A stretch of 9,106 nt of DNA from a virus (Duplodnaviria > Heunggongvirae > Uroviricota > Caudoviricetes). The stretch spans positions 1 through 9,106 of the IMG/VR virus record IMGVR_UViG_2703719349_000001; one strand, written 5' to 3'. The position numbers were made by a program, and so were the translations under genes. Below the pieces are notes generated by a model that was given only the letters and a program-made list of their open reading frames with translations, made no database searches and was not told where the DNA came from. Positions 1,331-2,190 of this stretch are shown here, piece after piece (positions within the stretch are counted from its first letter, which is position 1; each line of letters begins with the position of its first letter).

Positions 1331-2190
1331 TTGTTCTCCAAAATATTGATTCCTCAATTTCGGGACGTTACACTGTTCAGGCACCTTATAAAGCGGGTGC
1401 CGGGCGTGGAAACCCGGAATTCACCAAAGCGCACAACCGCGCTTTTGCGGTTTTTTTGTGTCATGAGCAGCATTACGCCCAAATTATGGTGGGGCGTGCA
1501 GGGCCAACTTCGGTTGGGCCGGGTTCTTTGGTGACCGGTATTTCCACCCCTGTACGTCTCACCACCAATAAGGTCGTGGAAAGCCTTGGTGGTGAGTTAT
1601 TAAAAATCACCAAAGAGGCTGCCATCATGGCTACGATCCCAACCCTCACTCAACCTGAAATTGCCATCGTTGATGGTCAGGCTGTTACTTCATCCCTGGC
1701 TGTTGCCAACTTCTTCTCCAAACGTCATGACGATGTACTGAAAAAGATCCGCATTTTGGATTGTTCTCCAGAGTTTTGTGCCCGCAATTTTGCGGAGACA
1801 TCAATTTTGGTACGCCAGCCCAACGGCGGTACTCGCAAACTTCCTTGCTATCAAATAACCCGCGACGGCTTTGCGTTTCTTGCTATGGGCTTCACTGGTA
1901 AACGTGCAGCCAGGTTCAAAGAGGCATACATCAACGCCTTTAACCTGATGGAGAAGAGTTTATCAGGTGCCGATGCGTCTGATATGTCAGCTGTCGCACG
2001 AAACGCCAGAGGCGTATACCTGCATTTGCGTGAAATCCATCAAATCTGGACAAGCCAGCTTTATCCAATGCTTAAGGCTGTTGAATCTCCGCTGGCCAGC
2101 AAACTGTACGACCGTGTTGGTGATGCTGTTTTTGGTGCTGCACTTGTTGATTCCAGGCTGAATGGTTCTGACAAGGAGGTGCGTCCATGA
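1327..2190 (+). CDS. rha: Rha-family phage regulatory protein with unrecognised ~100-aa N-terminal module; strong alternative internal start at 1627
   Basis: ORF open from ATG 1327 (ATGA overlap with upstream stop, weak SD). C-terminal ~185 aa match the Rha pattern (SLAVANFFSKRHDDVLKKI...EFCARNF...YQITRDGFAFLAMGFTGKRAARFKEAYINAFN). Internal in-frame ATG 1627 has a good SD (AAAGAGG 1612-1618). Which start is used is unresolved. Confidence 0.75.
   Translation: MIVLQNIDSSISGRYTVQAPYKAGAGRGNPEFTKAHNRAFAVFLCHEQHYAQIMVGRAGPTSVGPGSLVTGISTPVRLTTNKVVESLGGELLKITKEAAIMATIPTLTQPEIAIVDGQAVTSSLAVANFFSKRHDDVLKKIRILDCSPEFCARNFAETSILVRQPNGGTRKLPCYQITRDGFAFLAMGFTGKRAARFKEAYINAFNLMEKSLSGADASDMSAVARNARGVYLHLREIHQIWTSQLYPMLKAVESPLASKLYDRVGDAVFGAALVDSRLNGSDKEVRP
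1361..1404 (+). repeat. Ultra-conserved 44-nt block (copy 1) inside the N-terminal module of Rha paralog 1; contains GGCACC/GGTGCC hairpin
   Basis: CGGGACGTTACACTGTTCAGGCACCTTATAAAGCGGGTGCCGGG is 43/44 identical to 2221-2264, while flanking sequence is diverged. Confidence 0.85.

Follow-up and report, generated by a model that had tools for sequence, protein, structure and literature searches.

Two tandem IsrK-C4-type riboregulatory cassettes, each with a very probable leaky terminator, upstream of Rha-family genes in a Caudoviricetes sequence

The closest described relatives of the two terminator-like RNA elements reported here, which lie on a 9,106-nt stretch of a Caudoviricetes sequence (IMG/VR record IMGVR_UViG_2703719349_000001, positions 1 to 9,106; hereafter the window), are found in the phages P1, P7, N15, P4 and Gifsy-1, and the documented control in these relatives is that of antisense and target-mimic RNAs. 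The immI region of P1 and P7, reportedly described by Citron and Schuster in 1990, is said to comprise the promoter P51b, the sites a1 and b1, the c4 antisense RNA, the sites a2 and b2, and the genes icd and ant. The P1 C4 RNA is released from the read-through transcript by RNase P processing. The annotation of the P1 record gives the order promoter P51b, a1, b1, c4, a2, b2 and gene, with C4 blocking the ribosome-binding site through a2 and b2, and a hairpin with a T-run lies between b1 and c4. N15 carries an anti-immunity operon, immA, with a small processed CA RNA, as Ravin and colleagues reportedly described in 1999, and its record labels the homologous stem-loop a ‘putative rho-indep. transcription terminator’. 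In the Salmonella prophage Gifsy-1, transcripts from the isrK promoter partly stop at a Rho-independent terminator and yield the short IsrK, while read-through produces a translationally silent isrK-orf45-anrP mRNA, from which the ∼80-nt STnc1160, a C4 homologue, is processed; the short IsrK then opens the leader in trans, and the antirepressor is translated (Hershko-Shalev et al. 2016, PMC4825925). In P4, pairing of the CI RNA with its flanking sites (seqA - CI RNA - seqC) causes premature termination (PMC4825925).

In the window, two hairpins with adjoining T-runs precede two Rha-family genes, and each is very probably a leaky Rho-independent terminator ending an IsrK-type small RNA (sRNA), the first element of a P1-immI-type riboregulatory cassette. 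Two of these cassettes follow one another in the window and differ in their pairing specificity. Family identity, site complementarities and covariation were computed for this window, while termination with read-through, processing and trans-activation are taken from relatives.

All window features given below are on the + strand. Copy 1 of the terminator (1435-1457) has the 5′ arm AACCGC (1435-1440), the loop GCTTTT (1441-1446) and the 3′ arm GCGGTT (1447-1452), and its T-run comprises seven T's (1451-1457), two of which belong to the stem end and five of which lie beyond it. Copy 2 (2298-2317) is built of GGCGC (2298-2302), the loop GTTA and GCGTC (2307-2311), with one G-U pair, followed by six T's (2312-2317). 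In both copies, the T-run ends 130 nt past the ATG of the long open reading frame (ORF) that spans the region, so that the elements occupy matching positions. The original prediction, made from the sequence, was thus right in placing a hairpin with a T-run at the same position in both copies, although its seven post-stem T's in copy 1 had counted the two stem T's twice, and its start of copy 2 at 2299 was one base off. Copy 1 was assigned from the sequence, Rfam, a simple terminator scan, folding and covariation, and copy 2 from the first four of these. The scan listed both hairpins, yet it found 19 sites in the window versus 10.1 ± 3.1 in shuffles and on its own proves little.

An Rfam search of the window gave four strong full-length matches, two to isrK and two to C4. 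The isrK model (RF01394, gathering threshold 50 bits) was matched over positions 1-77 of 77 at 1381-1457 (67.3 bits, E = 4.5e-13) and at 2241-2317 (54.9 bits, E = 7e-10), and both hairpins with their T-runs coincide with the 3′ terminator stem of this model. In the module 1 IsrK-type sRNA, hairpin 1 spans 1381-1400, the loop of hairpin 2 holds a1, and the terminator forms the 3′ end. The C4 model (RF01695, gathering threshold 45) was matched in full length at 1482-1569 (83.6 bits) and 2342-2429 (80.7 bits), in each copy starting 24 nt after the T-run. The element is therefore an instance of a described, curated RNA family and is already known as such.

The pairing sites follow the same plan in both copies. 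The C4 loops a′ and b′ are exactly complementary, over 7-10 nt, to their own a1 and b1 inside IsrK and to their own a2 and b2 downstream of C4. In copy 1 these sites are b′ 1525-1534, a′ 1541-1547, a1 1406-1412, b1 1421-1429, a2 1576-1582 and b2 1607-1616 (target region 1576-1616); in copy 2 they are b′ 2385-2393, a′ 2401-2407, a1 2266-2272, b1 2282-2289, a2 2434-2440 and b2 2465-2473 (target region 2434-2473). A cross-module comparison of the a and b sites found no complementarity between copies 1 and 2, i.e. the module 2 C4-type RNA has a specificity unlike that of module 1. The b2 sites overlap the Shine-Dalgarno sequences of the two downstream genes (AAGAGG of ATG 1627 and GGAGG of ATG 2484), 8-10 nt before the ATG, and among 22 homologues b1 and b2 covary with the b′ loop. 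Candidate promoters with identical hexamers precede both sRNA genes: 1346-1374 in module 1 (−35 TTGATT 1346-1351, 17-nt spacer, −10 TACACT 1369-1374), which would give a transcription start near 1381, and 2206-2234 in module 2 (−35 TTGATT 2206-2211, −10 TACACT 2229-2234). They end 6 nt upstream of the isrK start, the same relative position as that of the annotated P1 promoter P1c4/P51b. Although the candidates fell below the threshold of a simple consensus promoter scan, TTGAnn and TAnnnT hexamers are kept at these positions in about 28 homologues with varying sequence (−10 as TACACT, TATAGT, TATGCT or TAGAGT).

Compared with Gifsy-1, the window shows a likewise ∼77-nt three-hairpin RNA with a Rho-independent terminator (read-through being documented in Gifsy-1), followed 3′ by a C4-like RNA and an antirepressor gene; the short RNA again shares target sequences with the mRNA leader, and an AUG in the 5′ end of C4 (1486 in the window) matches the start position of orf45. 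The two loci differ in that orf45 ends in an AUGA overlap with anrP, whereas the window frame runs in frame into Rha and also extends upstream across isrK; in addition, the window locus lies in the early-right operon, between Bro/Rha and replication genes and not beside antQ, and has two tandem cassettes, which are known from sequence alone. With the P1/P7 immI region the window shares the order of elements, including the hairpin with its T-run, the position of b2 over the ribosome-binding site, and loop sequences that set specificity as in P1/P7 heteroimmunity. However, its downstream gene encodes a directly translated Rha-family regulator and not icd-ant, its leader lies inside an open frame, unlike those of P1 and P7, and, while isrK is above threshold, the c4-a1b1 model (RF03163) reaches only 22.6 bits in the window (gathering 46.7). 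In P4, the C4-family CI RNA is preceded by an isrK-type element that shares the terminator and the outer helix (see below), but the spacing is 107 nt versus 24 nt in the window, and P4 shuts off a replication operon rather than an antirepressor. N15 has the isrK and C4 pair upstream of icd/ant-type genes; its module, by contrast, is free-standing, and stop codons interrupt the frame.

The conservation of the elements was followed through homologues. By blastn the leader was matched in 141 phage records, and a translated search (tblastn) yielded 16 loci from genomes of other Enterobacterales and of Aeromonas, among them Citrobacter, Edwardsiella, Plesiomonas, Pantoea, Kluyvera, Tatumella, Klebsiella and Aeromonas; as these genome-contig loci were picked by tblastn, they are biased toward open frames. 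An isrK element followed by C4 occurs in all 16 loci of other genomes, in 13 phage records including P1, P7 and N15, and in P4. A pattern scan of viral contigs (GCACC-N8-GGGTGCCGGG) gave 120 further loci, which were discarded as chance matches since nhmmer found none to be homologous. All 26 distinct homologous sequences that were folded have a hairpin abutting the T-run, with differing stems such as CCGC/GCGG, GACGC/GCGUC, ACACGC/GCGUGU, CCACGC/GCGUGG and ACCGCA/UGCGGU, and at least five T's directly 3′ of the stem are present in 29 of 30 homologues. The exception is a locus of a Kluyvera metagenome-assembled genome (L134, positions 1-84), in which the T-run after the stem is broken (GTGTATTTAGATTT), possibly a natural read-through variant.

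A plain MAFFT alignment of the isrK segments placed the terminator arms of the subfamilies in different registers and was unusable for pair counts, and the covariation alignment was made with our own covariance model, rebuilt once (29 distinct rows, 89% of cells paired). Its covariation score of 0.508 compares with 0.196 ± 0.015 for shuffled alignments, none of 500 of which reached it, and with at most 0.175 for slid partners. Compensatory double changes were found in four of the five pairs of the terminator helix, and the abundance of G-U pairs is consistent with a + strand RNA. The structural covariation that the original prediction had named as a check is thus present, and its view that a hairpin kept with differing stems marks a structural element agrees with both the 26 folded homologues and the covariation.

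A second helix surrounds the terminator. The bases just 5′ of the terminator pair with the bases just 3′ of the T-run and enclose both, e.g. as GACAC/GUGUC, CGCAU/AUGCG, CCGAC/GUCGG or GGCGAU/AUCGUC; this outer helix is kept from P1, P4 and N15 to the Aeromonas loci and has double changes in all six pairs of the 29-row alignment. Swapping in a non-cognate 3′ flank costs 2.9 kcal/mol on average, and in 18 of the 26 sequences the cognate flank outperforms 90% or more of the chimeras. In module 2 (2288-2323), GGCGACAA (2288-2295) pairs with TTGTTGCT (2316-2323) at a minimum free energy (MFE) of −17.5 kcal/mol, and the cognate 3′ flank is better than all 25 non-cognate ones. In module 1, the 3′ arm GTGTC (1458-1462) pairs with 1429-1434 in a weak and degenerate helix, the cognate arm of which is no better than non-cognate arms; an equally weak pairing of 1429-1434 with 1457-1462 is also given for this copy. 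Since the 3′ arm lies beyond the T-run, the outer helix can form only in read-through RNA, and C4 processing or the presentation of a1 and b1 are possible roles.

A competing structure overlaps the terminator from the other side. The alternative antiterminator-like hairpin AAAGCGC-acaacc-GCGCTTT (1426-1445), also listed by the scan, overlaps b1 by 4 nt as well as the terminator 5′ arm and loop, and is the MFE and centroid structure of the free copy 1 IsrK RNA. An equivalent alternative hairpin of 4-7 bp is found in all 26 distinct homologues; the test of cognate against non-cognate arms was weak (mean −1.2 kcal/mol, clear in only 6 of 26) because most sequences share GCGC or GGCG arms. The antiterminator hairpin is thus suggestive only.

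Combining these features with the known systems, the cassette would work as follows. A promoter ∼35 nt upstream of 1381 (2241 in copy 2) would start a transcript that either stops at the T-run, giving a 77-nt RNA with a1 and b1, or reads through into an RNA that holds both the C4-type antisense RNA, cut out by processing in relatives, and the message of the Rha antirepressor. The C4 loops a′ and b′ would pair with a2 and b2 of the mRNA, and, with b2 covering the ribosome-binding site, Rha translation would be blocked. Because the same target sites are duplicated on the short terminated RNA, this RNA could titrate C4 or unfold the leader, either of which would turn translation on, as was shown for short IsrK in Gifsy-1 (PMC4825925). 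The terminator would in this way set the ratio of the target-mimic activator RNA to the RNA that carries the C4 repressor and the Rha message. That expression of the downstream Rha gene is conditional on passing the terminator, as originally predicted, is borne out by the read-through of the Gifsy-1 homologue (PMC4825925).

The position of b1 suggests an additional feedback, which is our own proposal. This site lies 5-8 nt 5′ of the terminator stem and overlaps the competing hairpin of copy 1. In equilibrium folding, blocking b1 raised the mean terminator probability from 0.62 to 0.90, versus 0.61 for a control block; in copy 1 the increase was from 0.02 to 0.82, and in copy 2 from 0.94 to 1.00. 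C4 pairing at b1 may therefore favour the terminator: in copy 1 at least, C4 could bring about termination ahead of its own gene and so feed back on read-through, an effect expected mainly for that copy. The premature termination caused by CI pairing in P4 is a precedent for such an effect.

The original prediction regarded the region as an N-terminal protein module, and database matches appear to agree. Pfam PF10554 (Phage_ASH) matches residues 15-111 and 15-106 of the two long ORFs (window 1369-1659 and 2229-2504) at 57.6 and 59.8 bits (threshold 26), the Prokaryotic Genome Annotation Pipeline (PGAP) names the second ORF ‘ash family protein’, Ash has been treated as a protein domain of unknown function (PMC8951638), and PF10554 has been used as a profile or marker for P4 epsilon (PMC8628076). 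The T-run, moreover, reads Phe-Leu in both copies, and protein constraint might in principle have kept it for a real N-terminal domain, with the hairpins coincidental. We consider this extremely improbable. Substitutions in the module are flat over the three codon positions in four pairs (24/24/22, 15/12/10, 27/29/26 and 29/29/26), whereas the Rha part of the same pairs shows a coding pattern (2/5/21, 50/41/88, 0/6/15 and 53/48/99), and the synonymous fraction in the module frame is no higher than in frame 1; judged by these substitutions, the isrK and C4 stretch is under no amino-acid constraint. In about 29 sequences the T-run is made of T's without exception, the codon variants TTC and CTN being absent, and it is kept at the nucleotide level also in homologues without the ORF (P1, P7, N15 and others), where a Phe-Leu dipeptide with variable codons and no hairpin would have been the mark of protein constraint; the terminator stems, as described, covary. 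In P4, the PF10554 match (L151 8330-8521, − strand) lies on top of the CI RNA gene, in the obsolete ‘cI’ ORF, and the epsilon protein itself belongs to a different family, PF25738. In Gifsy-1 orf45, likewise, the nucleotide sequence but not the amino-acid sequence is conserved (PMC4825925). The ‘Ash’ module thus appears to be mostly a translation of the isrK and C4/CI RNA genes: what had been taken for a protein module consists of a promoter candidate, an IsrK sRNA gene and a C4 gene ahead of Rha starts at 1627 and 2484. Of the original prediction, the conserved structural RNA element with a Rho-independent terminator remains the best reading, whereas its placement inside a functional protein module is not supported.

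Several points nevertheless weigh against the leaky terminator. Both hairpins are short and weak (−7.8 kcal/mol in copy 1 and −6.5 kcal/mol in copy 2), and the folding z-scores of the isolated segments and RNA are not significant versus shuffles; with the scan as weak as described, the significance of the elements must rest on homology. The covariation alignment was fitted to the structure, and the positive pair counts come from such model-fitted alignments; when RNAalifold was run on the first model-based alignment, it called hairpins 1 and 2 alone and missed the terminator helix, since the stem registers vary from one subfamily to another. Termination efficiency, start site and C4 processing in this prophage are assigned by homology, the b1-dependent termination is a prediction of equilibrium folding only, and in Gifsy-1 the constitutively expressed C4-like RNA did not act as a simple termination factor (PMC4825925). 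Furthermore, 21 of the 29 distinct homologues have a frame that stays open through isrK, the terminator and C4 and continues into the downstream gene, and a pure RNA model leaves this stop-free frame in the lambdoid relatives unexplained. The weakness of the hairpins, together with the outer helix, which needs the read-through RNA, covaries in all of its pairs and prefers its cognate 3′ flank, would also suit an element that serves mainly the folding or processing of the read-through RNA by shaping the leader with the outer helix, termination at the T-run being minor. A helix alone, however, would not need the T-run that nearly all homologues keep, the short IsrK with its 3′ end at this terminator is abundant in Salmonella (PMC4825925), and the N15 record labels the homologous element a terminator, which together make a mainly folding role improbable.

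The open frame also speaks for a different alternative, in which an Ash-Rha fusion is translated from ATG 1327 or 2187 with the terminator inside its reading frame. Ribosomes coming from the upstream, ATGA-coupled gene would melt the hairpin, and read-through would need translation or phage antitermination; this would add to, or replace, the RNA-RNA control. The frame is indeed depleted of stops. In the ungapped set, frame 0 is interrupted in no sequences other than N15 and KPC3phi13.3, apart from a single stop upstream of isrK in Stx2a_JNE, versus 15 and 11 stop sites in frames 1 and 2, and over the 29 sequences the stops number 6 versus 20 and 29 in the isrK part and 10 versus 43 and 62 in the C4 part, the other frames carrying three to six times as many in total. 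Both ATGs overlap the preceding stop codon (ATGA), which would let ribosomes enter the open frame from upstream, and ATG 2187 has a strong AAGGAGGT Shine-Dalgarno sequence within a junction that is repeated three times (see below). The 18 codons upstream of isrK show some excess of synonymous changes in the open frame, and PGAP and phage annotators call the long ORFs. Leader lengths that are equal modulo 3 had seemed to point to frame selection, but the argument was dropped: between conserved flanks, a frame that stays open already requires indels in multiples of three, the in-frame length classes number only about 5 of 10, and several loci had been picked by tblastn. Against such a translated fusion, the isrK and C4 stretch lacks the amino-acid constraint that is clear in the adjoining Rha part, and the conserved candidate promoter lies downstream of the supposed ATG, so that the cassette's own transcripts would be without that start codon. 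Eight free-standing modules not crossed by an ORF (P1, P7, N15, KPC3phi13.3, IdasGreatGrand, L130, L132 and L137), which have stops in frame, keep the hairpin, T-run and outer helix. An orf45-type upstream ORF from the AUG in the C4 5′ end (1486) explains part of the open frame, though not the isrK part, and the tblastn selection of the genome-contig loci favours open frames. A terminator overridden by translation is thus a minority reading that we regard as unlikely, and the leaky terminator of an IsrK-type sRNA is retained.

The genes that the two cassettes would control are a Rha-family regulator or antirepressor gene (1627-2190) and a Rha-like gene (2484-2846), for which ATG 1627 and ATG 2484, both preceded by Shine-Dalgarno sequences, are the likely true starts. 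In the long ORF of gene 1, Phage_pRha is matched at residues 121-210 and TIGR02681 from residue 112, and the coding pattern of substitutions begins at 1627; the long ORF of gene 2 gives weak matches to Phage_pRha and TIGR02681 from about residue 110, with a coding pattern of substitutions versus phiP27 and ASU11. The identity to relatives breaks at the Rha start codon (1327-1626 versus 1627-2190; 2187-2483 versus 2484-2846): versus phiP27, copy 2 is 76% identical in the cassette and 92% in the Rha part, while versus sal3, copy 1 is 87% identical in the cassette and 68% in the Rha part. As cassette and Rha histories differ, this suggests that specificity cassettes have been swapped. The two promoter-IsrK-C4-Rha cassettes (1340-2190 and 2200-2846), with their non-cross-reacting sites, resemble, inside a single prophage, the heteroimmunity of P1 and P7. 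Of 5,426 complete E. coli genomes, 1,757 have the cassette in some version and 92 have the tandem pair, while none of the 50,697 phage records searched has the tandem pair.

Two further observations concern the surroundings of the cassettes. A 16-nt junction, GAGG(T/C)GCGTCCATGAT, stands at three consecutive gene boundaries (2176-2191, 2832-2847 and 3023-3038; three matches versus 0.01 expected) and contains a Shine-Dalgarno sequence, overlapping stop and start codons (ATGA) and the codons of a common C-terminus, ‘...E(V/A)RP*’. Such a junction could serve translational coupling, mark a module boundary for recombination, or do both. At 8218-8245, just 3′ of a Q-family antiterminator gene (7754-8149), lies a strong hairpin of terminator type (AAACCCGC-CGCGA-GCGGGTTT) with T's after it, overlapped by a Trp_leader match (8152-8244) that is weak and at chance level (E = 0.84); the hairpin is probably a late-promoter-proximal terminator (tR′-type) on which Q acts.

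Taken together, the window carries a textbook-type phage riboregulator whose cassettes are already recognised by current RNA family models. For annotation, this means that the Rha proteins are drawn about 100 residues too long, and that ‘ash family protein’ and PF10554 present as protein a stretch made up largely of an sRNA gene and an antisense RNA gene. As for the stop-free frame, we tentatively suggest, at rather long odds, that lambdoid prophages keep IsrK-C4 as an in-frame insert between an ATGA-coupled restart codon and Rha, which would serve as a riboregulator or as a translated spacer depending on the transcript. If so, on a transcript from an upstream phage promoter, ribosomes would cross the sRNA gene, the terminator and C4 and melt their structures, and an N-terminally extended Rha escaping C4 control would be made, whereas a lysogen would use the internal promoter alone, with the cassette acting as it does in P1; the ‘Ash domain’ would then be the footprint of this insert arrangement. 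With about a third of complete E. coli genomes carrying such a cassette ahead of antirepressor-like genes, its terminator may be an induction set point and may help to set the inducibility of such prophages, including Stx phages.

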